A stretch of 63,730 bases of DNA, filler included, from Rozella allomycis CSF55 (GCA_000442015.1; 10 parts of 10 records of this genome joined end to end with filler, not necessarily neighbours in it), one strand, 5' to 3'. Shown: positions 3,557 through 61,618, counted from the whole stretch's first letter. Numbers and translations are program-made. Notes: generated by a model not told the origin, from the sequence alone.

Positions 3557-5244
3557 ATGCCTCAGATCATAGAATTTATTCCATGTAAGTTGATTTTCCA
3601 TTAAACAACTCATCAATTCACTTTAATTTAAACCTATATACATCTAATCTCAGCGCGTTTGTATTTTTCATGGGGCACCTCGCCACCGGCACCTGCCAAC
3701 GACATATTTTATTTCACGGTAGACAATGACCTTCAATACGTACCATTCAATCAAGATTTTGGGCCAAACAATATAGCACATGTAGTTTTGTTTAACAGAT
3801 TGCTGAATTCGTATCTTCAGGTAATGTTTAGGTGTGACAGGTATAGTCGTCACATTTGAAAAACAAAAAGATTTGTTTGTTTTCGCATACGGATGATAGG
3901 AAACGAGTCAATGCGGCTTTTTTCATTTCATCTTTTATGGTAAATGTACTTGGTGTTGATTAAAGATGCTGGAAATGGGACTTACACCTGAAAAGGCATC
4001 GTATAAGCTCATGGACATTGAACCGGCATTGTCATTATATCGTGATGCAGGGCAAGGTAATAGAAGAAATTATGCATTAAAAGGATCTGCAAGCTATTTT
4101 CTTACAATTTTGGATTGCTTGAAGGGAATTAAGAAAGCCATTCAGTGTGGAATATTGAAACTTGAGGAGCTAGATGTTAAAGAGTAACAAAAGTTAAAAT
4201 ATTATATAGATATCTTTTTAGAGAACGAGTTGAAAATGGAGACATGAATTGGGTTGTACCTGGCAAGTTTCTCGCATTGGCGGGTCCGGAGAAGTCTATT
4301 TATGACAGACATTCTGCTATAGCAATGTCAAGAGGATTGAATACCTTTCACTTTGCTGATTTAATTGAATATTTTAAAAAAACCAACGTCAAATGTGTAG
4401 TTCGCTTAAACAACAAGTTATACGATGAAACAATGTTTTTAGACAATGGAATACAACATGTAGATTTAACTTATCCTGATGGATCAAATCCACCCGAACA
4501 TATTATGATCAGATTTTTGGATGTAGCTGAAAAAACTAATGGTGAATATTTCTCATAGTTCATATAGGGCCACTAGCTGTGCATTGCAAAGCAGGATTGG
4601 GAAGAACAGGGACATTGATCGCTTTGTATTTAATGAAGCACTATCAATTTACGGCAAAAGAAGTCATTGGATATTTGAGAGTAATGAGACCTGGCTCTGT
4701 TGTCGGACCACAACAACAATTTTTGGAACAGTAAAACAATTGACCTTTTAACAAAGAATGGAACAAAGAATGTGGCAAATGGGTCAAAATTTTAAAGACA
4801 TGTATTCAGAGCTTACTAGAAGACCTCATTCTGCAGGTACTATAGTAATTTAATGTTAACAGTCGCTGAAACGTACTCGTCCACAGTATCTTTCATTCCT
4901 GTCCAACCAAACAAATCGAACATTTTTTACGCGAATCTTCCAGAAAACTTAAAAGTAAAGTAATGTTTGTATGTTGATAGGAATATGTACCGAAAAGTGA
5001 TCAAACCGTTAATAGTGTATATCGATTGAACAATCCTCGACCAAATTACGAAGTTTTACAACCTCCAAAAACATCTGCAGGATATCATAACTATAATTTG
5101 CGTTCAAGTGGCCCTCAGATACCATCACAATCCGCACAAGACACCAGCAAGCTAAAACAAAAAAGTCCCAAGCCCTTAGACTCTGATTTGGAACTAGTTG
5201 GCCAAAGTTACTCTAACTTAAATCATAAATCAATACAAAAATAA
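3557..5244 (+). CDS. CDC14: Cdc14 dual-specificity protein phosphatase, multi-exon
   Basis: [49 protein letters not shown]; catalytic [11 protein letters not shown] at about 4578-4610; [11 protein letters not shown]. Confidence 0.93.
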
Positions 5245-5293: not shown

Positions 5294-7391
5294 ATGAGCA
5301 ATGACTCTGGAAAGAATAATCTAAAAGTTCAGACCAAACGAAGTAAATCAATGGATTCCACTCAAAAAATTGTCGCAGATTTGATAGAGGAAAACTCATT
5401 TTCAATTTCACCAAAATTTTTGACACCCCAGAACACATCGTTTCCACCTCCCTTGTATCAGCCCCTATTAATGATGTTAACGAGACTCCATAGTTTAAGA
5501 AAAGTGGAAGATTTTGATAAATTACTGGGAATTAAACTTAATATTCATGTTAATGAGTACCTAATGAAAACACCACACAATAGATTGCACATTGATAAGA
5601 TTCATGAATATATTCACACTTCAATTCATAATTTAGGTATTATATAGTTGTTAATGTTATAGGTAAACACTCCAAATTGATGTAATAGTACTTTCCAATA
5701 CCACAACTTTAATCATTGATCAGCTATGCGAATATTTGGCTAATACTATGTCTTCTCTAACAAAAGATACGTAGGTTTGCTTTAAATATATTTAAGTAGA
5801 TGTGATGTACCAGATTCTCTCTACAACGCTTTTCTAATCATCAGTTTGTCGATCAAGTATAATTTGACAGAGAAAACTGAGAAGAGAGCATTGCATCATG
5901 ATCAAAGTTGCTATATCAGACTTTTATCGTCCTTGATTTACTTTCTCGTGACTTGCAGTTACAGGTAACGCAAAGTCTATTCTTTAAGAAGGAATTCTAA
6001 ATATTTGTACATGATGTATTCAGACTCTTTATTCTTGTTAAAGAAATTGTTTATAGAAAAGCCAATTGAAATAAATTTGGACGACATTTTAAAGAGATTG
6101 CTAGTCAACATATCATCTGATGATCGTTTGCCGAATAATGGTAATAAAAAGAGAAATACAAAGACAGGGCTTGTAAAATACGCAATGAGTTTTATTTTTT
6201 CAAATGAATCGGAATTCAACTTTGAAATCATAAAGAAAAGGTCAATGTCACTGTTTATGACCCTATGGTATGTTGGCGGCCAAAGATCCGATGTTTTACA
6301 AAACTTAAAATACAAGAGTCGTAATTTCAACAATTCAGGTTTACATAGAATCATCTGATTCTTTTTCAGATGTTGAAACATTAGAAAATGTTTGTATACC
6401 AGAAATATTTGAATTTATTTACAAAAATATTGAAAACAATTCCATCATTGCCTTTCTTTATTGCCTTGTTTATAATAGCCCAATATTTCGAATGTTTGTA
6501 GCTTCCCAAACCAACATTCATTATATTGTAATTTTAATGAATGTTTTAAATTAGATTATCCCGTTTTTGAAATCATTTTACCGTTACTCTAGTGGAGACT
6601 CCTTAAATTCTCTTTATTTAAAGATTTGCGTTCTCTTGCTACTCTCCCAGGATGACATTTTCTCAGCAAACATTCAAAACAGAATAGTTGATCCTCTAAA
6701 TGTGATTGACGATAAAATAATAACCGTCATGAATTTAGAAAGTTTGCTGGTTGTTGTTCTCATAAACTTGGCGACTATAAACATTTCTCTTGAAAGAGTA
6801 ATTGACGATCACAAAAACAACAAAGGATTCATTTTTGCACGTTTGTATCTTTTCGCTTTTATTTAATTTGAGTTTCAGATTTAAAAACCTTCACTATTTT
6901 GCTGCTCAAAAACTGATGTTGTAAAATTTAATGTAGTGATTGTTTAGGTTCATTCAGTTCCTGACAGACAATCCTGAAAAGACATCTGAAAACAATGAAA
7001 GAGAAAAGTTCTTGATTTACACAGATACTGCATGCCTATCCATAGAAATAGCTTCAAACGCCATCTCCCATCAGCTTTTATATTCTTCGCCTCTCATCTA
7101 CTCTATAATCCAATACAAATCAACTTTTGATGAATACTTGGAAAACCACTATTTTGATCCTATCATGGAATGTATTAAAAAGGTATTCTACAATCAATCT
7201 CTTCAAAGATCATTCAAGTCTTTGAGTCAACATTAGATTCAACGTTTTCTTACGATGAGTCTATCAAGCATATATCGGAAAAGGTGAAACTGCTACCATC
7301 CACATTGATACAAAAAACAGACATGTACTTTATGCTGTACAAAGAAACAGACCCCTCATTTTTGATTGAACACTTAAACACTCATAAATAA
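5294..7391 (+). CDS. DYM: Dymeclin-like protein, multi-exon
   Basis: Spliced blocks FLYCLVYNSPIFRMFV, ICVLLLLSQDDIFSANI, LESLLVVVL and FKNLHYFAAQKL resemble conserved dymeclin segments as I recall them. Confidence 0.7.
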
Positions 7392-7415
7392 ATATCCATT
7401 TTTGATTTTTGGTAA

Positions 7416-12046: not shown

Positions 12047-12146
12047 NNNNNNNNNNNNNNNNNNNNNNNNNNNNNNNNNNNNNNNNNNNNTTAATTAATT
12101 AANNNNNNNNNNNNNNNNNNNNNNNNNNNNNNNNNNNNNNNNNNNN
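12047..12146. other. Artificial contig spacer (44 N + TTAATTAATTAA + 44 N); also at 35319, 46573, 48394, 50496, 53111, 56419, 58655 and 60605
   Basis: Identical six-frame-stop linker centred in every 100-nt gap. Confidence 0.97.
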
Positions 12147-13420
12147 TAACTATGGTTAATATTCCCCTGCTTCACCAATCTCTTCTGTTCTTTCAAATGC
12201 TTTATTATCTCCTTATCAACACCCTTCACATACTCTCCCTTCCACTCCCTCACTTGTTCAGTAAACCTTCCATCATCATCAACAGGACATGGAATCTTCT
12301 CATCCTCTTTTATTATCCCATTCTTCAAACACACTCTAAAATCATCTTCTCCAAACGCAGGTGCTTGGTGGACTATCCCTGTTCCACTGTCATCCTTCAC
12401 ATACCCATCGCCCAATATTCTGAAATTTCCACTTTCTCTTCTCTCTCCAAAATAATCAAACAACGGCTTATAATATCTTCCAACCAAGTCACTCCCCTTC
12501 ATCTTCTCTATCACTTTATACTTTTCCTTATTCTTCTTTTCTCCATACAATATTCCAACACACTTTTCTAACAAAATATACTTGTTTCCACTCTCCTCAT
12601 CCCTAATCTTCACATACTCATATTCTTCATTCACACACAACGCTAAATTAGATGGCAACGTCCACGGCGTCGTAGTCCATGCCAACACACTCACATCCTC
12701 TTCTCCTTCCAATGGGAAACTAACAACAACTGCCGGATCTATCGTATCCTTGTAGTTTTGATTGGCCTCAAAATTACTTAAACTAGTACTACATCCAGTA
12801 CTAAATGGCATAACCTATTCTTTTCACTTCACTCCCTTACCTTAAATCCACGATACACTTGGTCCTTTTCATACAACTGCTTAAACACCCACCACACACT
12901 CTCCATAAAACTAGGATCAAGCGTCTTGTAATCATTCTCAAAATCTATCCATCTCCCCATCCTCTCAACTGTACTCTCCCACTCCTTGGAATACCTCATC
13001 ACTATATTCCTACACTCCTCATTATACTTTTCTATTCCCATCTCCAACACCTATCTCAATCCACACATCCTCTTACTTGGCTGCGTGATGTTATCCCCAA
13101 CTTTTTATCAATCTCATACTCCACTGGCAACCCATGGGTATCCCAGCCAAACCTTCTTTCAACATAGAACCCTGTCATCGTGGCATATCTTGTCACTATA
13201 TCCTTTATAGTGCCAGCAAGCAAATGTCCATAATGCGGCAACCCAGTAGCAAACGGTGGCCCTATCTTCCACTATCTTGCCTCTTACCATCATAAAAACT
13301 ATAGATTGGTCGGTCCTTGGAAATTTCTAATGACTTTTGAAATGCATTTATAGAACGCCAGTACTCCAATATACGAACTTCCTCTTGCGCAAAGTTCATC
13401 GTTTTAGGCAACTGTGACAT
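12147..13420 (-). CDS. ILS1: Cytoplasmic isoleucyl-tRNA synthetase, 5' part (truncated by gap)
   Basis: [16 protein letters not shown] (HIGH motif), [39 protein letters not shown]. Confidence 0.95.
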
Positions 13421-28099: not shown

Positions 28100-30002
28100 A
28101 TGGGAAACTACAAAAAAGAGAAAAGCAGGAGAGCAAGAGAAACAGATTCAAGCAAGAACAGTGTAAAAATCCATACTAAAGGAGTTAATTTCTACCATGA
28201 TGAAAAGGAGGTTGCACTTCGTAAGATGCGTACGGGAGGTCAAGCGATTCGAGACCGGAATGGGAAAATATTGAAAGCTGCTGCATATCAAACAAGGAAG
28301 GGACATAATGAGGTAGCGCGAGTTGAGCCAAATAGAAAATGGTTTGGAAACACGCATGTGAGCACACAGGAACAGTTGGATCTATTTAGAAAGACTATGG
28401 AAGAAAAGGTGAATGACCCATTTAGTATTTTATTGAAAACGAGCAAATTGCCGTTAAGTTTGATTACTGATTCAAAGAAACAAGGCAGGATGCATTTGTT
28501 GGAAACAGAGTCTTTTTCACAAGTGTTTGGACCCAAGGCGCCAAGAAGAAAGCCAAAAATGAAGGTTGCCTCTATGGATGAGCTTGCAAACAAAGCCACG
28601 GAATTGGAAGAAAACTATCAAATTGAGAAAGATAGTGGATTAAAAGGAGAAGAAGAATTTTCAACATTGGTGAGTGAACCAATTTTTCAAAAGGGGCAAT
28701 CTAAAAGAATTTGGAATGAACTTTACAAAGTAAACCATTTAAAGTTGAATGAAGAGGTTGTGGATTCTTCAGATGTGATTATTCATGTGTTGGATGCACG
28801 TGATCCCATTGGAACGAGATGTTTGGCTGTTGAAAAATATATTCAAAAAGAAGCTCCACATAAACATTTATTGTTTGTGTTGAATAAATGTGATCTAGTT
28901 CCTACATGGGTGACTGTAAGATAACCATTTGAGTTTAAAAAGGCTGCTTGGGTGAAAACATTGTCAAAAGAATATCCAACTATAGCGTTCCATGCGAGCA
29001 TTAATAATTCCTTTGGAAAGGGTGCGTTGATTCAATTGTTGAGACAGTACAGTCGCCATCATTCTGATAAGAAGCAAATTTCAGTTGGATTTATTGGTTA
29101 TCCAAATACAGGAAAAGTAATTCAATTTATTTAAAGTTTTCTAGTCTTCTATTATTAACACTTTGAGAGCTAAGAGTGTTTGTTCTGTTGCTCCAATCCC
29201 TGGTGAAACTAAAGTTTGGCAATACATCACTTTAATGAAAAGAATTTATCTTATTGATTGTCCAGGAATTGTTCCTCCTTCCTCTGATCAATCAGAAACT
29301 GACATTGTTTTAAAAGGAGTCGTTCGTGTTGAAAATGTTCAAATGCCAGAAGATCACATCCCTGCATTGCTAGAAAGAGTTAAACCAGTCTACCTTCAAA
29401 GAACATACGGCATTCATTCTTGGGTTGACCACATCGACTTTTTGTCTCAAGTCGCCAAGAAAACTGGAAAACTTTTAAAGGGTGGTGAGCCTGATCTTGG
29501 AACCGTCTCAAAAATGATTCTAAACGATTGGCTTAGAGGGAAAATTCCTTTCTTTGTCGCTCCACCTACCCCTGAAAATACTGAAAATGTTCAAGGCGAA
29601 AATGATCCTAAAAATGAAAATTACATTGATCAAAAGTTTAAAAATATTCCAGTCTCTACTGACTTTATTCAAGAAGATGTCATGGAACTTGAAGAATCTA
29701 ACATTGGAAATGATCTAGTCCAAGATGAAGTAAAAGAAGATTGCGATTGGGATGAAATTTATAAAGACGTCGAAGGAGAAGTTGTTGATGAACCCGAAAT
29801 TTCAGAAGATGCTCAACCTGCAAAGAAACAAAAGTTGGAAAAGTCTACCAAGAGAAAATTAGACGAATCAATCGATGATGATGAATCCAAAATTAAAAAG
29901 CCAAAAAGAATGACTACAAATAAAATGAAAGTTGGCTTCAACTTTTACGACTCTGCAAACGTCAAGAATAGAAATAGGAATAAATCAAAACCAAAGAAAT
30001 AA
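28100..30002 (+). CDS. NOG2: Nucleolar GTP-binding protein 2 (Nog2/GNL2), multi-exon
   Basis: [60 protein letters not shown]. Confidence 0.96.
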
Positions 30003-30812: not shown

Positions 30813-31313
30813 ATGTCAACATATTCAGATTTCTATTTAAGATACTAGTAACCATATTTTCGATTTATAAAAGTGTTGGGCACAAGGGGAAATTTGGTCA
30901 TGAATTTTTAGAGTTCGAGTTTCGTCCAGACGGAAAACTGCGTTACGCTAACATGTCAAACTACAAAAAGGACACTATGATCCGTAAAGAGTGCTTTGTT
31001 GCTCCTAGCGTTATATCAGAACTTCGCCGCATTATTGAAGAATGTGAAATTACTAAAGAAGATGATAGTCAATGGCCGCAACCAGACCGTGTTGGTAAAC
31101 AGGAACTTGAAATCATTATGGGTGACGAACATATTTGTTTCACTGTAAACTAAATCATTTTATTTACCTCAGACGTCTAAAATCGGGAGTTTACTGGATG
31201 TTCAAAATAGCAAAGACCCTGAAGGACTCAAAGTGTTTTATTACCTCGTTCAAGATCTAAAGGCATTTGTAATCTCATTGATATCAATGCACTTCAAAAT
31301 TAAACCAATTTGA
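30813..31313 (+). CDS. MAGOH: Mago nashi (exon junction complex)
   Basis: [33 protein letters not shown]...FYYLVQDLK...HFKIKPI; two short introns. Confidence 0.97.
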
Positions 31314-35318: not shown

Positions 35319-35670
35319 NNNNNNNNNNNNNNNNNNNNNNNNNNNNNNNNNNNNNNNNNNNNTTAATTAATTAANNNNNNNNNNNNNNNNNNNNNNNNNN
35401 NNNNNNNNNNNNNNNNNNCGTGACATACAGAAATTCTGACATTCTTCATCACATTCACACAAAGCCTAATATTAGTTATGTATGGGCAGGCGATCCAAGT
35501 TTCATAATATGGATATCTAATGTTGTAAAGTCTCGTCCATAACAGAAATAGAATAAGCCGGCCCAGTTAAGATATCATTGGCGCCATATAGAAAAATAGA
35601 TATATCTTTTTTCTGGAAATTTCCAAATCCATGGTATTTGAAGGTTTCATGGACACACGTGGCTTGGAAA

Positions 35671-36771
35671 ATGAAAATTTTTGCTATCCTCGCTGGAGCA
35701 TCTTTAATTATTGCTAGTTCTCCAAACCAAACTCCATACTCTGACTTTGGATCTGATAGCATATCACCTTTACAACTTGACAGTGTTTCAACTCCTCCTC
35801 AAGAAGAGTTCGTTCCAAGCGCAGGTCCTTCCGTTTCCTTACCAGTTCCTCCATCAGTTGAACAAGCTGGTCCAGCTATTCATCTTGAAGAAGACCAATA
35901 TCAAAGTCAACAAAGACCTAGAATTCGCGCTAGAAGACGTATGGCAAGGGATCTTTCTCCTATTGACACCTCGGTAATACCTGAAAGAGCAAGAAGGATG
36001 TTTTCTTCATCTTCTGCTAGTCAACAAGTTCAACCAAATCAAACGATGTCTGAGCCAATGGAATTTACTCTTCCTCAAGCTGGACCAAGCACTTTTCATT
36101 CAACGACTGCAACATATTTTGACTTACCAATGGCAAGCTCATCATCAAGCCAACAACAAGCACCGGAACAGCCATTGCCAAGCTCAGAATATAATCCAAC
36201 CGAATCTCCTCTTGTTTGCCCAGGTGCACCCATGATTAGAAACCGTCGCAATAATCGTAGATCATACTATGATGACGAGTATTATAGAGCTATGTGCAGT
36301 GCCGTTGCTTCTAGCAGTTTAAATTTCCGTGATCAACGCGACTCTCGCACATTACCAAGTCCAACTATGGATGCACAGATGCCCCCTCCACCTCCTCCAG
36401 TTCCTACTGAAAGAGATATTTCAAGAGTTCATAATCGTTTCCAAAGTTATCAATTTATGCGTGATTCGGGTTTAGTCGGACTTGGAATTTCCATGCCATC
36501 ATCATCAACAAACCCGCCGCCCCCAATGCCATTGCCAATGGGTCCACCATCATCAAACGCTCCAATAGAGTCTGAAGATATTCCATTTGTTCCTTTTAGA
36601 CTTGATTTGCAACCTCGCCAAGGACAAGCTTCTTCTTCTGCAAATGCACCACCTAGACCGGAAACTCCTAATTTCAACGTTATTCTTTCCATTACTAATC
36701 CAGTTGAGAATGTAGAAGAGGATGAAGACATGGATGTCGAATATGATTACGAAGACGCTGAAGATTACTAA
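35671..36771 (+). CDS. Predicted secreted, intrinsically disordered Ser/Pro/Gln-rich protein
   Basis: Intronless ORF starting MKIFAILAGASLIIAS, with a low-complexity body and acidic C-terminus. Confidence 0.7.
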   Translation: MKIFAILAGASLIIASSPNQTPYSDFGSDSISPLQLDSVSTPPQEEFVPSAGPSVSLPVPPSVEQAGPAIHLEEDQYQSQQRPRIRARRRMARDLSPIDTSVIPERARRMFSSSSASQQVQPNQTMSEPMEFTLPQAGPSTFHSTTATYFDLPMASSSSSQQQAPEQPLPSSEYNPTESPLVCPGAPMIRNRRNNRRSYYDDEYYRAMCSAVASSSLNFRDQRDSRTLPSPTMDAQMPPPPPPVPTERDISRVHNRFQSYQFMRDSGLVGLGISMPSSSTNPPPPMPLPMGPPSSNAPIESEDIPFVPFRLDLQPRQGQASSSANAPPRPETPNFNVILSITNPVENVEEDEDMDVEYDYEDAEDY

Positions 36772-36847
36772 ATAAATAGCATTAACTTTTCGATTTTCCG
36801 TTCCCTACTCTCTAAGCCACACAAATTAAACTCAGACAGTGTGACAA

Positions 36848-37734
36848 ATGACAATTCAATGCAACAAATACATCCCAGACAATTGTTGGGCACTAAAACC
36901 TGTTGAATCCGACTTTCAGAAACTGGAGACTGTGAAAACAACTGTCAAGAACCTCTCAAAATCACAATCAGTGTGGTGTCAAAGACCAATAACATCCTCA
37001 CCTAACCCAATCCTCAACGACTTTAACCCCCATCCTGATTCATTTAAAATCACGAATCCATTCCATTTCCCCCAATTAGTCGATCTCCAACAAATCATCC
37101 TCAAAATCCTGAATCTCCCCTGGGAGGCCACGAGCAGCGACCTGATCGATTTTTTCGACGGCTACAATGTTCTCGACATCCATATCCCGATCGACAAGAA
37201 AACCGGCAAATCACTTACGGAATCATTCGTAATCCTGCAATGCACATCACACATGAGAAGAGACATGATTTCGCACCAGATGGAGCTGCGGCAGGGTAAT
37301 ATAATTAAAGAACGGAATATATTTTTCAAACTGTGTTCAATTAGTGATGTGTTTAATGTGTTCTTTCCGCTGTCTAGCTGCACGCGGTATATTGGCAGGG
37401 AGGATGTGCACCAGATTCTGACTGTTTGCAAGCACTACAAGGTAAATGAGTGGAAGGCGTTGAATAGATTTACTTTTCGCGGAAATGCGCTGACCGCCCT
37501 TTTAGGCATATATTGTCCATGCTGAAATTGGTGCCGATCCAGAGACTGGATTGGAGGGAACGGTATTATTGCTTTGAGATGGTGAGGATTGGGTTGCAGA
37601 TACTGAAAGCGCATGTTTCTAAGCAGGCTTCTACGTTGGATAGTGGGTTGATTGATGAATATTGTGATACTGTTGTTGGACTTGGATATTTTAGTCAGGA
37701 AAGAGTTGATGAAATTTGTAGGATAAAGGTATGA
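36848..37734 (+). CDS. RRM-domain (qRRM-like) protein
   Basis: ILKILNLPWEATSSDLIDFF..IHIPIDKKTGKSLTESFV; one short intron near 37442. Confidence 0.7.
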
Positions 37735-37938
37735 CAATTTGGTGTGTTTTAACCAGACTAGTGATGACATAACGATTGACCAATTTCCCAATTGAAGAAC
37801 AAATTTCGGCATTTATAACTTAATAAACCTTTAGCTCCTTTAAAATTTAATGATAGAAAACTATTTAGAATATATAATATTAAAATACTAGTTAAAAATC
37901 ATTTAAAACAAATTTCTGAATCTCTAATCTGTAATTGA

Positions 37939-40900
37939 TTAAAGAGAGTTTATTGCATCTAATACAGTAGCACTTGACCAAGCCTGAATATGACTAGAAT
38001 GCTCGCAATGCACTCCATTTTCATTTGTCAATTCCGGCAGCCCACTCCATTCATTTTCAGCGATGTATTTTCTGTGGGTGTACAAAAGTGCGTGAATTTT
38101 GTGTTTCTTTTCTTTATCCTATTAGTAGAGGTGGATGTGGTGTACTGGGAGGGTTGAAAAGATGTTTATGGATTTTAAAAAGTAACCGAATAGCCAGACC
38201 CATTCGGGGCCCTGATGGTAGTTGAATCCTTTGGCGATTGAGGGATCTGAGGATTGGTTGTCGTTGTCGTAGAAGCCTCTGTATTCCCAGTCTGAGGGAT
38301 CTAATGTTTTCATGCCTAACTAATGAAAGAATATTTCAAGTACCTATTTGAATACTCTAACCTATTGATTACCTATTTGAATACTCTAACCTATTAATTA
38401 CCTATTTGAATACCCTAACNCTAATACAGTAGCACTTGACCAAGCCTGAATATGACTAGAATGCTCACAATGCACTCCATTTTCATTTGTCAATTCCGGC
38501 AGCCCACTCCATTCATTTTCAGCGATGTATTTTCTGTGGTTGTACAAAAGTGCGTGAATTTTGTGTTTCTTTTCTTTATCCTATTAGTAGAGGTGGATGT
38601 GGTGTACTGGGAGGGTTGAAAAGATGTTTATGGATTTTAAAAAGTAGCCGAATAGCCAGACCCATTCGGGGCCCTGATGGTAGTTGAATCCTTTGGCGAT
38701 TGAGGGATCTGAGGATTGGTTGTCGTTGTCGTAGAAGCCTCTGTATTCCCAGTCTGAGGGATCTAATGTTTTCATGCCTTTCTAATGAAAAATATTCAAA
38801 GTACCTATTTTAAAACTTTAAACTCGTTGTTACCTATTTTAAAAGTTTAAACTCGTTGTTACCTATTTGAATACCCTAACATATTGATTACCTAAAGGAC
38901 CAAGTAGATTATTTTCAATAGTGTTTAAACACTTTTGTACATTCTCAGGCTTGAATAATTCAGGAGCAACACTAAAAGCAATGCAACAATTTGGTCTCAG
39001 CTGGTAATCTCTAAACGGCAATGAAGATTTATAACAATCCTTGTAAATATCAATACTCAATAAAGAAAATGAATTACCAGTTTTGTGGATGAGAGATTCA
39101 TCAATTTCGTAATTATTGAAATTGGTTGAGGGGATGAAGAAGTGTTTTTCAAAGTTAGATTGGATTAGATTATTCCATTCTTTAAACGATACGAATTTGT
39201 CTTTTTTGATGATTGTTGGAATTTTTACCATCTAGTTGGATTCCATTGAAGGGATAAATGTTTTCTTCTTGTANAAATTTATCTTTTTTGATGATTGTGG
39301 GAATTTACCATCTAGTTGGATTCCATTGAAGGGATAAATGTTTTCTTCTTGTAAATTGCAAATCCAACGAAGAGTTGATTTCAGCATGGCGATTATTTCA
39401 ATAGCTGCACCATCCCTTGGTGTTGCTGGTTTACCTTATTTCTAGAAAATAGTTGAATTGTGTACCTAATTAATGTCATTTAAACTCTTTTACCTAATTA
39501 ATGTCATTTAATGAGCTTTTTTACCTAATTAATGTCATGTAAACTATTTTACCTAATTAATGTCATTTAATGAGCTTTGTTACCTAATTGATTTCAGCTA
39601 ATGAACTTTGTTACCCTTGTTAACTTTGGAATCACCCATCTTATCCATCCTAAACAAAGTTTAACAATTTGAATTACCAAGTGCCACAATTGGAATTATT
39701 TCCCCCAAAAACAAACCCAGTTTCCCAATCAGTGGAAATATCAATATTGAATCCCTCATCGCTCATCGCATGATCCAACAGAGGCCCAGCATTCCATTCT
39801 CTAAAATGAATTCCTTTAACAAACCAACCACACACAAATACCTCTGGCATGCGACTCTAGAATATTTTGAATGAAATCAACAACTCTCATTTCAACAGTG
39901 TATGCTCTATCATCAAATTCATCAATGTAATCATCATTAAAGAATCTTTTGTATTTGGAGATGTGGAATACCTTTTTTTGAATTTGACAAATAGAAAATT
40001 GTTTCCTTCTGGACTTTTCAAGCAATAATCTTGGATTGCTTGAAGACAGAACCAGATAGAGTCTCTTGAATTGTAGCGTGGTTTTCTGGCAGCGTCTAGT
40101 AGATTTGGAATTAATCCATGTTTAAGGACAGAACAGAATGCTAAAATGTGATCTCTTGCGTCTTGGAATCTATTTGTTTGTAAATAGAGTCCTTTGGAAA
40201 TGAAAACATCTCTTCCCCAACAACGCATATGTCTAATAGCGAAATGTGGCAGTCCTTTAAATCAATTGAGAATAAGGATACCTTTATAGTTTCAACAAAA
40301 TCATTTACCTATAGATTAACTTTAACAAAATAGTTTACCTAATTAACAATTAAAATTATTTTCTTACCAGCTGCTAGTGATGGAATGTCTTTGAATGGAT
40401 CTAATCCAGTATTCTTCACTACCCCTGTCAATGCAACACTAGTAAGACCAAGAGATTGAATAAATTTATCCTTTCAATTTCAAACAATAAAAATACTTTA
40501 TTTTCTAGTTTCATCAACTTGATTGCCTTTTCTTTCAATTTCTCATTAATTTCATTTATAATCAAATAAATAAATTTTGGTCGGAGATAAAAAACAATCT
40601 AATCTAAAAATAGATTAGGAAATTTACTAATTTCAATTCATTAAAAACAGATTTCAAATAATCAATAAATTCAAATAGATTTAAGTTAAAAGTTGAATTG
40701 TATTTAATTAATCTATTAATATAATAATCTAACAACCAAATGCCTCCTCTTAAATGATTACAAATTGGATGACCCAAATCATTCAACTCTACAATTTTCT
40801 TTATTGAATTTAAGAAACCAAAAAACCCACAATATTTAAAACTGCCAAAATTATCAATGAAATAACTAGATTGATTAATAGACTCATTTTCTTCTATTTC

Positions 40901-43865
40901 ACTTTTAAACATTATTATATTCAAATTATTCAATGAATTCAAACATTCAAAATTCAAAATATTTTTATCATTCAAACTTTTATACAATCTTTCAATCTGT
41001 ACATTGTTTTCTGAAACTTTTTCAAATATCAACACTGACCCTGGTGTAAATGTTTTCTTTAAAATTATTTCTAAATACAATCCATGATGATCTGTCCCTT
41101 CTTCTATTTCAAAAAAGTCATCTCTATCAACCAAAAGGGGAGTAGTCAAGGGAGTGAATGGAGTCAATGGAGTTAAGGGAGAAGTAGACGGAGAATGATC
41201 ACCACTTTCACCTACTGCATCTCCCCTACTCTCTCCACCTTTACTCTCACTGATTAATTGCTTGGAAAATATTAATCTATATTCACCCCTCAATTTAATC
41301 TTCTCAAATGTCTCATTCCCCTTTTCTCTAAACGCCATATGCGCAATCAACAAGTACCCCTTCAGCGTCACTGGATCTTCTCTCGTTATTCTCACTACTT
41401 GGTCATCTTGATGCACAAACGTTTCAATACACTCATTCATCTCCACATGCAATCTATTCAGAAATCTCCTTGCTTGTTTAAACTCTGTATCCACTAGTTC
41501 ATACAATTTATCTTCCTTGACCAAGTCACGCTGCTTCAAGTACAATTCATCATAGCCATACACTGATCCAATAGCTGATCTGGTAAACGCTACTATACTC
41601 GTCAAGGGTAGTGTATCGCTAATTGTTCTCTTTTGATTTGGCATTTCATTGTCATGTGTACAATCCATATACAATGCATGAATCAATGATGAGTTTTTCA
41701 CTGTTACGCTATTTTTACCTTTTCAACTATTTAAACTATTCTTACCTACTATGATACCATTAGAGCTTTTATTACCTATGATACCATTAGTGCATCTATT
41801 ACCTATTGTTACACCTACAACTATTCTTACCTTTGAATTTCTCATTTTCAATTGCATTCTTGAATGACCCAATCGTCTGCCCACTCAGTTTATGACTAAT
41901 CCTACATTGCTCCGACACATCCCATGGCTGAATGCCTTCTCTAATCAATGAATTTATTCCCAANTTGAATTCTTGAATGACCCAATCGTCTGCCCACTCA
42001 GCTTATGACTAATCCTACATTGCTCAGACACATCCCATGGCTGAATGCCTTCTCTAATCAATGAATTTATTCCCAACTTTGACACAAATATCAAATCCTT
42101 CTCTTCTGACCCAGTAAACAGTTCAGCTACAACATACAAATCTCTCCTCACCCTCCTCCCTGCATCAATCAAATACTGCGCTACTGGAATGGGCGTTGAA
42201 TGGCAATTGTCAATCCTAAACCCATGGAATATCTCAGCCATCTTTACACTATACTCTCTCATATACTCCCACAAGATCAAATTATCTCTCTTTAATCAAC
42301 ATTGTTTATTAAATTTACTGGCTCTTTTCCATACCTCAGTTTCACACAGTCGCCCCAAATAATCACCTGTCGCAAGAAATACGCATTCGTTTCTGCAAAA
42401 TTATTCAATGGATCGCCATTCCAAATCCATCCATTATTCACCAACGCATATTTCTTTCCATTCCTCTCAAATCTCGTAAAATATGAATACAACAAGGGTC
42501 GCTCTTTACTCACTCTGCCCAACTTTGGCCCATTCTCCGCCAATCTCTCATACTTTATTCTATCTCTCATATTCTTTATTATCACTTCAACATCCTTGTC
42601 ATATTTCTCATAAATAGGCAAATTCAAGCCATTCAAAATCTCTAAATACTCCTTCATCACAACCCTCACATCTTCATTATACTTTAACAATTCATATGCA
42701 ACAAGTCTCTTCACTCGCACAGAATTTCTATCTTTTCCAGCGTCTTGGTACATTCCATTCTCTCGCAAATATTTAATCTTCTCTTCCAACTTCATCTCAC
42801 TCATCTCTCCATCCCTCTCCTCCATCCTATTCTCAAACAACTCCCTCATCTCTGCAATCGCTCTCTCAACATCAACAACAAAATACTCCCACAATTTATA
42901 CCGCTTCATCCACTCATTCTTAAACACTCCTATCACCTTGTCCAACTCTCGCTCATCTCCAATCTCTCCACTCAATCCATACCCCTGCATCCCTTCCCCA
43001 AACTCCAATATCGCCTCGTCCAACGCAAACGCTACCTTCAAATGCGGACTATTCTCCAAATTATACCCTCTACCTCACATCCACCAATCATTACCCGCAT
43101 CCGGATACTCCCTCAACCACTCCGCATTACTAGCCATATGGTTCCACACTACATCCACTATCATATACAACCCCCGCTTCTCCATCCCTCGCACAAACTC
43201 ATTCAACGCAGCATATCTCTCATCCTGCCTCTTCTCCACTCCAACCAGCCCATCATCCAACATCAACGGATCATACAGCGAATACGGCGACCGACTCTCC
43301 CCCTTTTGCTGCACAGGACACAGATGCACCATATTATACCCATGCTCAAGCGCATCCTCCATATACTCGCCCCATCGCTCAATCCCTCCCATCCACTTGG
43401 GCACCATCGTCTTCAACACAATCTCATCAACCTCAATCCCAATCTTCGGCGGGATCTGGAAATACCCACTATGCGAATGGTTCCCAAGTCTATCCACATA
43501 CCTCATACCACAAAATCTACAATGTTACCGGTACTCAAAGGTTCCTGCATACATCACATTCGCCAACATCCCAAACGCATCCGTCTCGCAGTCATAGTAC
43601 AAATCAATTCGCGCAAACCGTCGCCGCTCAAATTCAGACCTCTCTCTTCCAACTTTATCACTTACGAATAATTGCATTCAATGTATCCACCACCATGCTC
43701 CAGACACGGTGAACCGGCCGTTACCGTGAATTTCAACGTTATCGGGAAATTCAAATGCGGGAATCGGATAAACTAGAAAGAATTGCATTTCTTCTTTACT
43801 TGGATGGACTTTGATGGAGATCCATCAGCCTCCAACGGAATTGTTACTGTTATCGATTCTTGCAT
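37939..43865 (-). CDS. GDB1: Glycogen debranching enzyme (4-alpha-glucanotransferase/amylo-1,6-glucosidase), multi-exon
   Basis: [93 protein letters not shown]. Confidence 0.96.
38778..38891 (-). other. Compound intron: 4 abutting GT..AG micro-intron units (29+29+29+27 nt)
   Basis: Removing all units joins TTA G|GC ATG to give the conserved [10 protein letters not shown]. Confidence 0.85.
39435..39614 (-). other. Compound intron: 6 abutting GT..AG micro-intron units (31+31+28+31+28+31 nt)
   Basis: Removing all units joins AAG G|GT AAA to give [17 protein letters not shown]. Confidence 0.88.
40255..40367 (-). other. Compound intron: 4 abutting GT..AG micro-intron units (29+30+27+27 nt)
   Basis: Removing all units joins GCT G|GA CTG to give SLAAGLPHF. 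Confidence 0.85.
41719..41830 (-). other. Compound intron: 4 abutting GT..AG micro-intron units (28+27+30+27 nt)
   Basis: Removing all units joins AAA G|GT AAA, in frame to [12 protein letters not shown]. Confidence 0.85.
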
Positions 43866-43992
43866 TACTAGGCGATATCTCTAGGGTACAAAACCAAAAC
43901 AAATTGGAAATTAACCAAGCCATAAAAATTGTACAGTCAAATCGGGCTAAAATTCAATACTTACATGAACGCTTCAATTTTAAACGTATAAC

Positions 43993-44722
43993 TTAGTCTT
44001 TATTTAATTTAACTCGCGTGTAATGACCATGCTTTATGCGCACACTAAATTTGGCAATACCAATCGCCAAAAGCCATGCAAAAACAACAATCGCAATCTG
44101 GCCATATAAACTAACTCTGCCAAAAAGCGGATACACCCATATCTATTTCACAACTCACAAATACATACCCCATCAATATAATTCACAACATGCACTAGCA
44201 CCAAATATCCCACAGAAACAACAAAACTAACAATGCAATCCACCGGATCAATTCTTTATCATCATAACATAAAATGTACCCAACATGATGCGAAAAATAC
44301 ATCCATTCAACCCACATCGCAATCGCCGGCACCAGATGCATCTCCAAATTCTTCCACAGAGGCAGCACCTTTTCAAATTCAGGATGGTTCACCAACTCTT
44401 CATGGATCAGCAATGACTTGTCATAGGTAAACAGCAGCCAGAAAAATGAAAAGATTATATTCTCCATCGAAAACGCAAGCACTAGCAGGCGAGATACCCG
44501 TTGGCCTGGGAATATCAAGAGCAGAAATAGAACAAGGGCTGTTACGTGGGCACCGAGGATTGTTAGGAACTAGGATATTAACGCGATTGTTGATACTTGG
44601 TACCGACCAAGTGTTGTTTTTATGAGACCAGAGTCAAACATCATGCCGTCTACAGTGAGGACTAGGAATATTAGACGGATGATGATTTTTGGATATGTTG
44701 ATGGCTGCATTGCAATTTCCAT
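43993..44722 (-). CDS. FAR-17a/AIG1-like membrane hydrolase, multi-exon
   Basis: GRYQ-FLTILG (catalytic Thr region), EMHLVPAI (His), WVYPLF; several TM segments. Confidence 0.8.
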
Positions 44723-45137
44723 GAGAGTTTTGAAAGAGTTTGAAGTGGGTGGAAACTTCCTGATTTATGAAATCTCCTGAATGGAAACTTTCCCTCGATG
44801 AGATTCAGAATGAAGTCGATTCTCTCAAAAAGAAGTCTAATTTCATTTATACTGTGACTCCATTATAATTCTTAACTTTATTTGATACTGATTAACAAAC
44901 TAATCGTTTTGAGATATATTTGTCGTCTCTAGGTCTTGACCACATGCCTTCAAACTTGTACGCTTGGTGTTGGATATGAAATCTAGGGTTGCACTTTAAC
45001 GCCTACTAATAACAATATAATTAACTTAGTGCGTTAATAACGGTTAAAGACTCAATTGTTACAGTATCCACAAAAAAATCAGTCTATGAAATACAAAATA
45101 GGATTTATTGAATACGCATTTATCGCAAATTGTATCT

Positions 45138-46283
45138 TTAGTTATTGTATTTGTAAATATCATTTTGCAACAGCATGTAATCGACTAAAAATTCCAGATT
45201 TTTGATTCGCCGCAGGTCAAAGGATGAAAGATCCCAATTCTCATTCCTCGATCGTATTAAATTTTCTACCAAAAATGCAATGCTTTTAAATCGATATCTA
45301 ATGGGCTTTGGATTTTCTAGTGCTGACTGTAAGAATTCGCTCACAACTTCAGAATTGCTAGAGTGTTTAGCTATCCAAGATTTCATATCATCAGAACCTC
45401 CTAGAATCAATTTTCTGCTCTTTGTAACATTCTTGGAATCCTTTGCTGACTTTTTGATACCCGAGGATAGTTTTGGTCCACCGCCATCCCTTTTCAAAAT
45501 TGGAATTTGCAAGTCTAAACTCGCATGAAGATTTTTTGCGACGTTTAGATCGTGTGATGAAACTTCATAATAATGTCTCACCCTTGCTCCATAATCCACA
45601 CTTGTGGCCACATGTGTTCCAAATTTCTGAATGAAAAATTTGTACCCAAACCACCTAGAAGAATCAAGTTGAGTCGTTCTTAAATCTGCAGGAAGAAGTG
45701 AGTTAAATAGAAATAACATATCTTCAGCGTGCTTAATTTTGACTAGATCATTGTCATCTATTTGTATTGTATATAGAACATTCATTTTATCTTCTAGATA
45801 ACTAATGATGCTTTTGGAAGAATTGTTTCGCGGCATTGATTCATTTCTTAAACTTAGTGATAACCCTAGTCCGCCTTTAAGCAAAGAAAAAAAATACGAC
45901 AGGCTCTTTTTAACATTGAAACTGAACGCATTCGTTAGATAAGTTGTGTATGAAGAAAAACTGTCAATAATTTCATTACTTTCATCGTAATTATTGATTT
46001 TAGAATATTTAATGTTCACCTCGTCAAGATCATACAACTGTGTTTCCGGCTCAAAATTAAGGAATAATATCTTGTTTCCAGTAAGGGTATGTCCATGTCC
46101 AAGAAAGCTTTTAGCGTTTGAGATATTACCAGCTACTTTTTCAATTTCTTTGTGGCGCGCGTAGAGAGTCTTTAATTTCATGAGAGCGTCACTTTCTTGT
46201 GTAAATATTCTCTTTGATTTTATTGCTGAAACTGTATTTCCAGTCATTTCAAAAACAAGAAACAGAAAGACCAATAAAATCAT
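45138..46283 (-). CDS. Secreted MACPF (perforin-like) domain protein
   Basis: Signal peptide MILLVFLFLVFEMTG, LGHGHTLTG, MACPF signature variant FIQKFGTHVATSVDYGA, ILGGS and PKPIRYRFKSI; intronless 381 aa. Confidence 0.8.
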   Translation of the reverse strand: MILLVFLFLVFEMTGNTVSAIKSKRIFTQESDALMKLKTLYARHKEIEKVAGNISNAKSFLGHGHTLTGNKILFLNFEPETQLYDLDEVNIKYSKINNYDESNEIIDSFSSYTTYLTNAFSFNVKKSLSYFFSLLKGGLGLSLSLRNESMPRNNSSKSIISYLEDKMNVLYTIQIDDNDLVKIKHAEDMLFLFNSLLPADLRTTQLDSSRWFGYKFFIQKFGTHVATSVDYGARVRHYYEVSSHDLNVAKNLHASLDLQIPILKRDGGGPKLSSGIKKSAKDSKNVTKSRKLILGGSDDMKSWIAKHSSNSEVVSEFLQSALENPKPIRYRFKSIAFLVENLIRSRNENWDLSSFDLRRIKNLEFLVDYMLLQNDIYKYNN

Positions 46284-46672
46284 ATTTTCACACTGACAAG
46301 GGTGTATAAAAAAGGCGCAGCATCATTCCATAATCAAGCATGACAGTTCAGTGCTCATAATCGCCTTGACCATTTGAAAATAAATAAAAAAATTTAAGAT
46401 TTTCTTTTCCATTTTTATTTACAATCCCACCTTCCTCTGGATTTTCCAAGCCACATCATCGATTGACCAATGAGACAATTCGCAGGGGCGATTTTCCATT
46501 TATTAAAAAGGACGCATATTAATTCTTACAAAAGAGGGTTTTATGGTGCTGTTATTGGATGTTCCTTTGCTTNNNNNNNNNNNNNNNNNNNNNNNNNNNN
46601 NNNNNNNNNNNNNNNNTTAATTAATTAANNNNNNNNNNNNNNNNNNNNNNNNNNNNNNNNNNNNNNNNNNNN

Positions 46673-48393: not shown

Positions 48394-48493
48394 NNNNNNN
48401 NNNNNNNNNNNNNNNNNNNNNNNNNNNNNNNNNNNNNTTAATTAATTAANNNNNNNNNNNNNNNNNNNNNNNNNNNNNNNNNNNNNNNNNNNN

Positions 48494-50068: not shown

Positions 50069-50859
50069 CTCGTTGACAGGGATAAATAAAGGTTCAGGTT
50101 TTATTTAGAGCATATCATGATTATCATCTACTTCATTAAACCCATAACAAAGGGATACCTCGGAACCCCAAACTAAGTGACCATAGAATTCAAGCAAATA
50201 TGTCTACATTACTAACTTTTTGATACCAATAGCTTGAATTTTAACACCCTAAACGGAATGGCGTTTGGATTGAGGCACTCAAGCGAATATAAATTACATC
50301 AAGATTTTGTGATTCTTAACATGTCTCGGAGTACTCGTTAAATAGGACAGAGATTTAAAAACCAACAATAAATATCTTCACGTAAAACAAATTTTGTCTA
50401 TTGTCTATTTCTCTTGAAATATGGTCTAGTGAATGATGAGTGTGGAGTGAAAGCCAGTGTCGTACCTAGCCCATGGGGGGACACCTGTAGTAAGGNNNNN
50501 NNNNNNNNNNNNNNNNNNNNNNNNNNNNNNNNNNNNNNNTTAATTAATTAANNNNNNNNNNNNNNNNNNNNNNNNNNNNNNNNNNNNNNNNNNNNTCAAA
50601 CACTCGGGACAAAGAAGATGAGGACTTAGCATAGAGCGACAACAACAGTTGATACAAACTGTTTGCTTTCCAATAGGTGTTAAATAAATTTGCCAATGTT
50701 TGTTGCAGAGTCTGGACGTTGCGTAAGCTATCTTTGCACAACAAACGCATAAAGGCATTGTGGCGTTGTAGAATATAGTATCAAGAATAACTTCTATAAT
50801 ACATGACAATTTAACGCGTATTTAAAAATATTAATGGATTATGATAGCTTTTACCATAA

Positions 50860-52549: not shown

Positions 52550-54499
52550 TCATTTACTGGAACTTCTGAGTAATGACACAAATCTCCGGCAAATATCTTT
52601 TGATTGCCACGTACTACATCATCATTGATCAAGATCAACTTATTAGCCACTTCAAGTAAGAGCGGCTAAAAGCCGGTTACAAATTTCTGGCTTGCAACCG
52701 TGGTCTTGACATCTATCCAAATGAACTTTGGCTCGGTGATGAAGCTATCGCAAGAAATCTGTGACACATTGACAGGTCTANAAATCAAAAATAAAATTGA
52801 AAAAAGTGATCATAAGTCATTAATCTTTTCAAATTTTAATTATTTTTTAATCATTAACTAGAACATCTGAGTAATGACCCAAATCTCCGGCAAATATCTT
52901 TTGATTACCACGTACTAAATGATCATTGATCAAGATCAACTTATTAGCCACTTCGGTTAAGAGCGGCTAAAAGCCGGTTACAAGNGAAGAGATAAATATT
53001 AATGTCGATCAATTGTTAAATAAAATAAGAAAATTAGAAAAACTAATTTGGGAAAGCATTTTTCAATTCAAAATGGATGCGATAATGTTACAATCAAATT
53101 TTCATTTTTTNNNNNNNNNNNNNNNNNNNNNNNNNNNNNNNNNNNNNNNNNNNNTTAATTAATTAANNNNNNNNNNNNNNNNNNNNNNNNNNNNNNNNNN
53201 NNNNNNNNNNTTTAGTTATAGGATAGTTTTGGTTGTTTTAGGATAGTTTAATTGTTTTAGGTTTTAGGATAGTTTTAGTTTTGATTTTGATTGTAAGTAT
53301 GATTAGTGTTAATTATTATTATTCCTGTTAATGTTTTAATATATATGTTTTTTTGAAGATTGAAGATAAAGAATAGATCGTTCGAGTTCTTGTGTGTGCT
53401 CCCTCTGAGCGCCCACGAGTGAAGCCGGCGGTCATAAAGATCTCGTTAGTTTTTCTTTTCGATCAGAAGAGGATTCAAAATGGCTCATAACTCTAATGAA
53501 TGGATGGATGGATGTCTTAAAAGATGAAAGTAAGATGAATTGANCAGACGAAATTACCTTCAATGTAATTTTCTTTTTTGTTTTGTAATTATTCGTTAGT
53601 GCATATTATTTTTGTTTAGTTTGTATGATTGGGTTTAGTTTTAGTTTAGTTATAGGATAGTTTTGGTTGTTTTAGGATAGTTTAATTGTTTTAGGTTTTA
53701 GGATAGTTTTAGTTTTGATTTTGATTGTAAGTATGATTAGTGTTAATTATTATTATTCCTGTTAATGTTTTAATATATATGTTTTTTTGAAGATTGAAGA
53801 TAAAGAATAGATCGTTCGAGTTCTTGTGTGTGCTCCCTCTGAGCGCCCACGAGTGAAGCCGGCGGTCATAAAGATCTCGTTAGTTTTTCTTTTCGATCAG
53901 AAGAGGATTCAAAATGGCTCATAACTCTAATGAATGGATGGATGGATGTCTTAAAAGATGAAAGAAAGATGAATTGAAACTAATCAAATAGAGATTGAGG
54001 TAGAAACGAGTGTTTATTTACATTTTGTTGCTTCTTTTATCTTCTACTGTTCCCATGGATACTTCCCTTCTAGAACCTTCTAATAAATTGTTTTCATATT
54101 CATTCTTCATAAACTTCTCTTCTTTAGTTTCTTTTATTATAATTCCTTTGACTTCTTGGAGGTGTGCTAACACCTCATTAAGCTTTACTTGAATTTTAGC
54201 TTCGTTAATTCTTGCTTCGTTAACCTCTTTGCCACCGAAGCTTATTCCAACACTACATGTGAATAATAATGTTGTTGAAGATGTTACTGAAAAAAATAAT
54301 TGAAAATTGAAATGATTGCAAGATATGAGCATATAGAAAACAGGAGCTAAAATTGAGTGTGATTAGATCGATTGATCAGTTCTAAGTTCTCACAGGGATG
54401 CTAAATGAAAATGAATTTAATTATTGACAAGAAGGATAAGGTATAATTATTTAATTATAAAAGTTTTGAAAGGGGCATTGAAATTTGAATCGTCTCGAC

Positions 54500-56418: not shown

Positions 56419-56518
56419 NNNNNNNNNNNNNNNNNNNNNNNNNNNNNNNNNNNNNNNNNNNNTTAATTAATTAANNNNNNNNNNNNNNNNNNNNNNNNNN
56501 NNNNNNNNNNNNNNNNNN

Positions 56519-58630: not shown

Positions 58631-58754
58631 TATAGTATCTTAATCCTCTTAAATNNNNNNNNNNNNNNNNNNNNNNNNNNNNNNNNNNNNNNNNNNNNTT
58701 AATTAATTAANNNNNNNNNNNNNNNNNNNNNNNNNNNNNNNNNNNNNNNNNNNN

Positions 58755-60604: not shown

Positions 60605-61618
60605 NNNNNNNNNNNNNNNNNNNNNNNNNNNNNNNNNNNNNNNNNNNNTTAATTAATTAANNNNNNNNNNNNNNNNNNNNNNNNNNNNNNNNNNNNNNNN
60701 NNNNAAATTACTTTTCAACCTATTCTACACTGTCAATTCATTGATCTATCTTTCGCAGACGACAAAAGTCTGTGTTTTTTTAATGTCAATTCATTTTATA
60801 ATTTAGCTCAGTTTTTGAAAAACAAAAGATTATGAATCAAAAAGTAGACGTTAATCGTCTAACAAGCCTCGTAGTGCTCGTTAAATCGGACGGGGAGTTT
60901 CTAATTAAAAAAATTTCTTCACACAAAACAACATAGAAACTAATTTTATTTAAGGTATTTATGCCAGTCTTCTCAGAATCATGGATGCATTCCTTTTTGC
61001 TAATGTGAAACTAATTTTTAATCTGAGCCTGTGGTATACCACATTAGTCTCAATATTTTGCAGATTGGACACTGTATGCGCGATACTTTTAAGGAAAGCC
61101 AAAGAATCTACGTCGAATTTCCACCCCGATCCCTCCGAANTGGGAAAAATATCAAACCTTTGTTAAAATGGTAAAAAAAAGGAAAAGAAAGAGAATAAAG
61201 GAGAAAATAACGGAAGAAACGTGGTTGTAAAAGAAGCAAATTTATTGGAAGAATGCTTTGAAAGGTCTCCAAGTGTGAACTTGGAGACCTATAAACTTTG
61301 TCAAACCCCGCTTACTTTTTATGCAAACTTCGCTATATTTCGCCTTATGGGATTTCTAGTGTGAAAATAAAGTGCGACAAAGCTTATCTGATGGTATCTA
61401 GGAAAGAATCAGGGTATAAGAAAAAATCGGAAAATAAGTAAACAATCCGTTACTAATCTCAACTGTTTATAAGTTTTAATAAGTTTCTTTATTAATTGAC
61501 TAATACGTACCAAGAAAAACCAAATCAATCCATTAAAAGAAACCACATTTATTAAAATTTANATTTTCCAGTTTCCTCAGTCCTACGAATCCTGAATCTC
61601 ACGACATAAATCATGACT

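Follow-up and report, generated by a model that had tools for sequence, protein, structure and literature searches.

Can an intron of ordinary length be built entirely of smaller introns, each with its own complete splice sites, and be removed one piece at a time? This question is raised by the glycogen debranching enzyme (GDE) gene of the parasite Rozella allomycis CSF55, which lies on the minus strand (37946..43677) of a 63,730-nucleotide (nt) stretch of its assembly (GCA_000442015.1), hereafter the window. Four introns of this gene had been singled out in an earlier reading of the DNA (the original prediction) as stacks of back-to-back GT..AG units that might constitute a recursive splicing system. 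We recovered the stacks as described and put at roughly 0.55 the probability that the long introns of the GDE gene are hypervariable stacks of complete micro-introns, which would be gained and lost as units and removed unit by unit. The term system overreaches, since what we found amounts to four arrays in one gene and one likely pair of 26 + 26 nt elsewhere.

Architecture of the arrays and their host gene

A script split the four minus-strand introns, in the order of transcription, into 4, 4, 6 and 4 GTA..AG units with zero remainder. Array 1 (41719..41830) is made up of units at 41830-41803 (28 nt), 41802-41776 (27 nt), 41775-41746 (30 nt) and 41745-41719 (27 nt), and array 2 (40255..40367) of units at 40367-40339 (29 nt), 40338-40309 (30 nt), 40308-40282 (27 nt) and 40281-40255 (27 nt). 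The six units of array 3 (39435..39614) measure 31, 31, 28, 31, 28 and 31 nt and start at 39614, 39583, 39552, 39524, 39493 and 39465. Array 4 is present in the window in two haplotype versions: the first (38778..38891) has units of 29, 29, 29 and 27 nt starting at 38891, 38862, 38833 and 38804, while the second (38316..38419, also minus strand) is interrupted by a contig break inside the array at the N at 38420, leaving an 18-nt unit end followed by units of 29, 29 and 28 nt. Thus, the original prediction is borne out in its core: the division is exact in all four intervals, all 18 units begin with GTA, end with AG and are 27-31 nt long, and each of the 14 internal boundaries reads AG|GTA.

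The ends of the units are those of U2-type GT-AG micro-introns in 18 of 18 window units and in the three full units of the second array-4 copy. Direct reading of the sequence indicates that after the loss of any unit the AG of the preceding unit, or the exon, adjoins the next GTA. The arrays accordingly display the hallmark of zero-length exons, namely an AG|GT inside an intron at which the donor is re-created after upstream removal, and also that of dual-specific sites, with AGGT at each unit edge and an intron that consists of whole units. They do not have the organization of stwintrons, as the units abut at complete AG|GTA junctions and no splice signal is split.

This arrangement is rarely produced by chance. 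When the interiors of the arrays were shuffled with the outer GTA..AG held fixed, tiling was obtained in 3, 1, 0 and 0 per 200,000 shuffles; hence the shuffled-control comparison proposed in the original prediction gives at most 3 in 200,000 for any array. Likewise, three occurrences of the junction pattern TAGGTAA at a spacing of 20-26 were matched 4 times in the window as against 0 times in 100 shuffles. A search for chains of GTA..AG units of 25-33 nt on both strands of the 63.7-kb window returned chains of three or more units only in the GDE gene, i.e. the four arrays and the second array-4 copy (38401-38316). Within the gene, all four introns longer than 35 nt tile, which limits the scope for case selection.

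Searches with fungal GDE proteins using tblastn gave collinear matches spanning residues 112-1531 of a 1,542-aa homologue, with a best identity of about 43% on a 260-aa exon; the homologues carry PF14699, PF14701, PF14702 and PF06202 as precomputed Pfam domains, and collinear glucanotransferase and amylo-1,6-glucosidase domains with conserved motifs are found here. We modelled the gene, after removing three assembly duplications, as a least-cost open-frame path whose junctions were checked one by one against 10 fungal homologues, which yielded about 1,440 codons with a provisional start at 43677. A model with the least number of introns was discarded for its nonsense junctions. The accepted model has nine single introns of 26-29 nt, a doubtful 33-nt intron (43534-43502) derived from the open-frame path, and the four arrays. 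The nine, placed by the open-frame model and the homologues, lie on the minus strand at 43094-43068 (27 nt), 42318-42290 (29 nt), 40627-40599 (29 nt) and 40496-40471 (26 nt) in the 5' part, and at 39971-39946 (26 nt), 39841-39814 (28 nt), 39677-39650 (28 nt), 39308-39283 (26 nt) and 38607-38581 (27 nt) in the 3' part. The two parts also differ in composition: the 5' third (42001-44000) has a G+C content of 0.42, a GC skew of -0.51 on the plus strand and few introns, while the 3' part is AT-rich and intron-dense.

As the original prediction held, the gene model places all four arrays in phase 1, each splitting a Gly codon. Alignment to the 10 homologues revealed that removal of the whole of array 2 re-creates the stretch AAGLPHF, removal of array 3 the stretch KG.P.TPRDG, and removal of array 4 the stretch GPLGM.TLDP; of these, AAGLPHF, TPRDG and GPLGM.TLDP are invariant or nearly so among the homologues. 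The claim that unit removal restores conserved motifs therefore stands for arrays 2, 3 and 4 but not for array 1, which sits in a loop of variable length where homology gives no verdict. Here no in-frame stop interrupts units 2 and 3 together (27 + 30 = 57 nt) as they stand in the window haplotype; however, in the other haplotype, as reconstructed from contig tables, two listed 1-nt insertions bring them to 59 nt, which makes them non-coding there and argues that they are probably intronic.

We found no protein containing the GDE exons in the public protein collection; the proteins searched were those of 456-2000 aa for the 260-aa exon and those of 164-2000 aa for a 93-aa exon. A neighbouring protein from the same contig (the piece at 35419-46572) is present in public collections. 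The absence of these exons from the searched proteins, set beside the assembly duplications that adjoin the arrays, implies that pathway surveys could wrongly score the parasite as lacking the glycogen debranching enzyme.

Several observations define the ordinary intron size against which the units are to be read. Across the window, GTA..AG candidates that join open reading frames (ORFs) number 28, 20, 14 and 13 at 26-29 nt as opposed to 0, 4, 5 and 3 in a reversed control. The 63 single-intron candidates outside the GDE gene, among which some false positives remain, range over 24-32 nt with a mode of 26. For a nucleolar GTPase gene, whose ORF at 29145-30002 shows 99% identity to an NCBI protein of Rozella allomycis CSF55 and so assigns the window to this species, the annotated protein points to introns of 27 and 28 nt. 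Whelan et al. 2018 (PMC6349667) mention introns of about 30 nt in R. allomycis in passing. With sizes of 27-31 nt, the array units fall within the single-intron range; nevertheless, the suggestion that they have the usual single-intron size needs a slight adjustment, as single introns (26-29 nt, mode 26) are a little shorter (mean 27.5 nt versus 28.8 nt for the units, a difference of 1.3 nt; Mann-Whitney p = 0.005).

The further suggestion, that the spliceosome is tuned to about 30 nt, does not hold in absolute terms. In a CDC14-like phosphatase gene, the 9-codon first exon is followed by an intron of 69 nt (3585..3653, plus strand) of the classical fungal type, which starts with GTAAGT, has CTAAT and CAG near its 3' end and lacks any internal AG|GT. 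The next exon shows a match to Pfam DSPn that begins at profile position 2 and matches to solved CDC14 chains that begin at residues 12-15; as it has no in-frame ATG, the upstream 9-codon exon is needed. This predicted intron shows that the spliceosome removes at least one longer intron in a single step. In all, six introns longer than 35 nt were verified in the window, comprising the four arrays, one pair and this non-tiling case; scans for ORF-joining introns of 34-200 nt and a least-cost path over 3500-8200 were too noisy for a census of long introns.

Relatedness of the units and their variation between haplotypes

We compared the unit interiors within and between arrays. Neighbouring units reach 96% interior identity, while others are at about 50%, the level of random pairs. 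In array 3, units 1-5 form one family (65-96% interior identity) to which unit 6 is unrelated, and the 3'-most unit is unrelated to its neighbours in arrays 2, 3 and 4 alike. Identity between units of different arrays does not exceed 68% against the 50% background. Tandem Repeats Finder reported arrays 1 (in part), 3 and 4 and nothing in array 2. Hence, the units at random level together with the repeat-negative array 2 mean that recent duplication alone fails to explain the tiling, and, with several units unrelated and array 2 undetected as a repeat, the tiling is more than passive inheritance. The proposal that these introns grow by whole-intron tandem duplication accordingly fits the near-identical neighbours and, as described below, the whole-unit differences between haplotypes, but not the remaining units at about 50% or array 2.

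The junctions behave differently from the interiors. Among 12 related unit pairs, chosen as tree edges, changes were found in 51 of 295 interior columns as against 0 of 60 GTA/AG columns (hypergeometric P = 3.5e-5), so that the boundaries are conserved beyond their surroundings, as expected of zero-length exons. This also agrees with the earlier observation that diverged units keep both splice sites and length, the lengths staying in the single-intron range. On this comparison selection appears to act on the internal AG|GTA junctions.

We placed on the window the contigs of four publicly available DNA runs (X1, X2, X5 and X6), which come from four studies and possibly from the same strain. Several single-N gaps in the window, including that at 38420, are uncollapsed contig overlaps that make false tandem duplications inside genes, and the public contigs confirm three of these in the GDE gene. 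In the region 37959..38420 two allelic sequences overlap at a single-N gap without having been collapsed (Tandem Repeats Finder gives a period of 462; the contigs skip 439 nt); 37959-38419 repeats 38421-38880, and hence the end of the gene is not truly duplicated. At the N at 39274 a duplication covers 39193..39274 (period 80), and contigs of all four runs pass from 39192 directly to 39275; at the N at 41964 another covers 41852..41964 (period 113), and contigs of all four runs skip 113 nt. At the single-N gaps at 39274, 41964, 48684, 49130 and 57766 the left flank recurs 80, 113, 125, 285 and 251 nt downstream, respectively. With an assembly that is faulty in this way near the arrays, the counts of units found in the window should be read as those of one haplotype and not as fixed.

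Between the two allelic copies that the window contains, changes are seen at 3 of 330 exon bases (2 of them synonymous) and 0 of 27 single-intron bases, i.e. 3 of 357 positions outside the array. Array 4, by comparison, has been rebuilt between them: the middle units differ, and the last unit shows 5 changes in 23 aligned interior columns and one indel. In X1, X2 and X6 position 38859 is joined to 38419 through 7 letters, which on reconstruction gives five units of 29, 29, 29, 29 and 28 nt, while X5 joins 38831 to 38340 in a mixed form. Array 3 lacks 59 nt in X5, leaving four units (32 bases fit both sides of the joint, and k-mer collapse is possible), and has its middle replaced in X1 and X6 to give four or five units. 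In array 2, contigs of X1, X2 and X5 end loosely at 40290 and 40325, and these ends carry a further AG|GTA, consistent with two more units. The array 1 variant carries 9 substitutions and 2 insertions (41736-41792) among the changes listed and none in 15 junction bases; it accounts for part of the depth in X1 and X2 and for all of it in X6, a run from which a single contig spans 39576 to 41851, across arrays 1 and 2. Every haplotype version that we reconstructed still tiles. Judged by these contigs, the arrays are real, allelic and unusually changeable.

Proposed unit-wise removal and its rivals

Taken together, these features suggest a simple course of events. Tandem gain and loss of segments of about one intron, through slippage or unequal exchange, would supply the variation. 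The introns concerned are flanked by G|G (phase 1, Gly), a setting in which even a shifted duplication would re-create AG|GT. The mRNA would stay intact only if each junction can serve the spliceosome as a 5' splice site as well as a 3' one and the units have the length of an ordinary intron, and as only such rearrangements leave it intact, only those would persist. Through intron definition, each unit would then be treated like any other intron of about 29 nt, and a number of short splicing events, in no set order, would clear the array, each re-creating AG|GTA or, in the last event, the exon-exon join; this would amount to recursive splicing through zero-length exons. Piecewise removal, as the original prediction had it, is favoured by the conservation of the junctions, the constraint on unit length and the retention of tiling through rapid change, evidence that comes entirely from DNA. 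The likely pair of unrelated 26-nt units in a second gene (5637-5688) counts in its favour too. More tentatively, at slightly less than even odds, we propose that the stacks turn over far faster than their flanks, that selection keeps the junctions by virtue of the iterated excision of about 29 nt, and that introns here may lengthen in modules.

Several points weigh against this interpretation. Directly after array 3 there is a 30-nt GTA..AG segment (39405..39434, minus strand), by which the chain search extended the array to 7 units; it codes for the conserved TPRDG according to the homologue alignment and would have to be ignored by splicing, and GTA, AG and length are therefore insufficient as signals. 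No clear branch-point consensus was seen in either the units or the single introns, as inspected by eye, and words resembling TTAAT or CTAAT are common in any AT-rich DNA. The 69-nt CDC14-like intron makes one-step removal of a whole array mechanically possible. The junction test uses units that were picked because they tile, and 2 of its 12 pairs, at 64-67% identity, are weakly above the 50% background. The haplotype reconstructions use only the changes listed for k-mer contigs, which are prone to repeat collapse. Finally, arrays of three or more units are confined to one gene in 63.7 kb.

The arrays could alternatively be intronic minisatellites that are spliced once, from the first GT to the last AG, with the internal AG|GTA being unused by-products of duplication. 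The 96% identity of some neighbours, which makes some junctions young, the detection of arrays 3, 4 and part of 1 by Tandem Repeats Finder and the demonstration by the CDC14-like intron that longer introns can leave in one step all speak for this. Nevertheless, we regard it as unlikely, because it does not account for the contrast of 0 of 60 junction changes with 51 of 295 interior ones, for the tiling of unrelated units and of the repeat-negative array 2, or for variant haplotypes that retain both tiling and unit lengths; moreover, skipping three to five good acceptors would be unexpected under intron definition with strong sites close by. That the arrays are instead an evolved recursive-splicing device, which delays or tunes expression or generates isoforms, is suggested by the presence of four of them in one gene with the same phase and codon type, and by units 2 and 3 of array 1 being in frame and stop-free in the window haplotype. 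However, the same two units add up to 59 nt in the reconstructed other haplotype, so that no isoform is conserved, and 5 of the 7 units whose length is a multiple of three contain in-frame stops when read by eye. The free variation of unit number and sequence among haplotypes fits drift rather than tuning, and outside the GDE gene the window contains no array with as many as three units. We consider such a device quite improbable, and in the window sequence and the contigs of the four DNA runs we saw no sign of a dedicated system or a regulatory role for the arrays.

A different origin is conceivable through the insertion of whole introns at splice junctions, for instance by reverse splicing into AG|GT followed by reverse transcription. 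An exon-intron junction is itself a proto-splice site, and the 3'-most units of arrays 2, 3 and 4, as well as both units at 5637-5688, are unrelated to their neighbours. We nonetheless deem this very unlikely: no donor intron was found elsewhere, with cross-array identity at most 68% over a background of 50%; rapid divergence within arrays can erase the similarity of old duplicates; and haplotypes that differ by whole similar units fit DNA slippage. Still lower do we rate the chance that collapsed or expanded repeats or misjoined haplotypes have created the arrays in the assembly. Three single-N gaps in the gene do carry false duplications and one contig ends inside array 4, but contigs from four runs of four studies cover the arrays (not fully independently, if the strain is the same), and the reading frame requires the removal of each interval, leaving only the copy numbers uncertain. 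Least credible of all is a decaying pseudogene whose arrays are junk that is never removed. It would accommodate the lack of a protein with these exons in the public collection (proteins of 164-2000 aa), yet the spliced frame stays open for about 1,440 codons and includes conserved catalytic stretches, the 3 differences in 330 exon bases between the haplotype copies include 2 synonymous ones, and the splice sites are intact in both haplotypes.

Stacks of complete micro-introns that are removed unit by unit would have close relatives among published phenomena. Duan et al. 2024 (PMC10809524) describe dual-specific AGGT sites at the edges of tandem-repeat units in human UBC and VCX3A, with intron lengths that are multiples of the unit and a polymorphic extra intron copy, and attribute the tolerance of repeat expansions to the possibility of removing them by splicing. 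The likeness to the Rozella arrays lies in a single AG|GT that can act as both acceptor and donor at unit edges, as predicted here from the sequence. The human units consist of coding monomers or of larger repeats, and the introns of that genome are long, whereas in the Rozella arrays the unit is a complete non-coding minimal intron, some units are unrelated, and the whole stack would always be removed. Recursive splicing at zero-length exons has been reported for long introns of Drosophila and human and for two introns of S. pombe (bioRxiv 10.1101/226894; bioRxiv 10.1101/006163). The arrays resemble the ratchet points described there in that a 3' splice site is directly followed by a 5' splice site and stepwise removal would re-create the donor. 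In the known cases the introns are very long, or 336 nt in the yeast case, with one or a few sites and observed intermediates, whereas the Rozella arrays are introns of 112-180 nt that would be cut into 4-6 minimal pieces.

For the complex introns of Lipomyces, PMC7138796 reports consecutive standard reactions in which the smallest possible internal intron is chosen first; by analogy, we count this choice as favouring unit-wise removal. An origin of fungal stwintrons and complex introns through small duplications of splice signals has been proposed. In stwintrons the introns are nested, with the internal intron interrupting a splice signal of the outer one. The Rozella units, unlike these, abut, carry complete signals each, and none would depend on the prior removal of another.

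Tandem duplication of an AGGT-containing segment is a classical model of intron gain. As in that model, a DNA-level tandem duplication would give a spliceable GT..AG segment here; the model, however, turns a copied exon into a first intron, while the Rozella case would multiply an existing one. Tandem duplication of AGGT segments is listed among intron-gain mechanisms in PMC12862383; targeted word searches of that paper and of PMC13644364 returned nothing on stacked micro-introns. In the literature covered, with subscription journals thinly represented, we found no description of whole introns built from abutting minimal introns. The original prediction knew of no description in a micro-intron genome, which agrees with this result, but close concepts are in print in PMC10809524, bioRxiv 10.1101/226894 and PMC7138796.

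Modular lengthening with iterated excision, if true, would be a natural case of recursive splicing as the routine removal of an intron of ordinary length, and would offer a direct handle on intron definition and on the limits to intron length. Should the units be spliced singly, the GDE gene would be a compact natural test bed with four arrays in several allelic versions. It would bear on how sites are paired by a spliceosome used to introns of 26-29 nt, on whether an intron of ordinary size can make use of zero-length exons, and on how repeat instability and selection for spliceability jointly reshape introns. The arrays may also be usable as hypervariable markers of Rozella haplotypes.

Candidate pairs and other loci

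Outside the arrays the chain search returned 8 two-unit chains, and seven places were inspected. The likely stacked pair lies at 5637..5688 (plus strand) in a Dymeclin-like gene and consists of two unrelated 26-nt units. The frames join only if all 52 nt are removed, and tiling arose in 1,179 of 200,000 shuffles. A match to Pfam Dymeclin was obtained with exons further 3'; for the flanking exons no Pfam family was recovered and homology does not cover the junction, and hence the case for this pair is one of frame logic. A possible pair of 27 + 25 nt at 11431-11482 (minus strand) is ambiguous, as the 27-nt unit is in frame and stop-free and the frames would fit just as well with a single 25-nt intron. 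For the chain at 3811-3870, one 26-nt intron (3821-3846) is the better explanation, and those at 43003-43066, 43469-43534 and 12969-13027 lie within coding exons; the chain at 31143-31194 has no clear reading as a stacked pair.

A metagenome scan with the junction pattern gave at least 119 stretches, in which the matches with coding flanks are coding repeats, with periods that are multiples of three, and AT-rich non-coding satellites. No further stacked micro-introns were recognized among the matches listed, which is a weak negative. One metagenome contig (L046, 9501-9925, plus strand) has an exon end and donor repeated 12-14 times with a 31-nt period, so that the intron there opens with a run of GTA..AG units, a tandem array of donor sites; the organism is one that lacks micro-introns. 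Judging by its motif, we take the gene to be zinc-transporter-like.

The window itself joins unlinked contigs by nine spacers of 100 nt each (12047-12146, 35319-35418, 46573-46672, 48394-48493, 50496-50595, 53111-53210, 56419-56518, 58655-58754 and 60605-60704), every one consisting of 44 N, the 12-base six-frame stop linker TTAATTAATTAA and another 44 N. Scans of the window for Rfam families and tRNAs gave no matches. On the minus strand at 9500-9818 there is a 72-nt tandem repeat of 4.4 copies with 93% matches, which codes for a 24-residue repeat in a Thr/Gln/Ser-rich ORF (8335-10125). Motifs suggest the likely nature of three further loci: the gene cut off at 12095 by a spacer is presumably isoleucyl-tRNA synthetase-like, the ORF at 45138-46322 (minus strand) has what we take to be a perforin/MACPF-like signature, and the ORFs at 62625-63655 (plus strand) presumably represent the gag and pre-integrase part of a copia-type retroelement.

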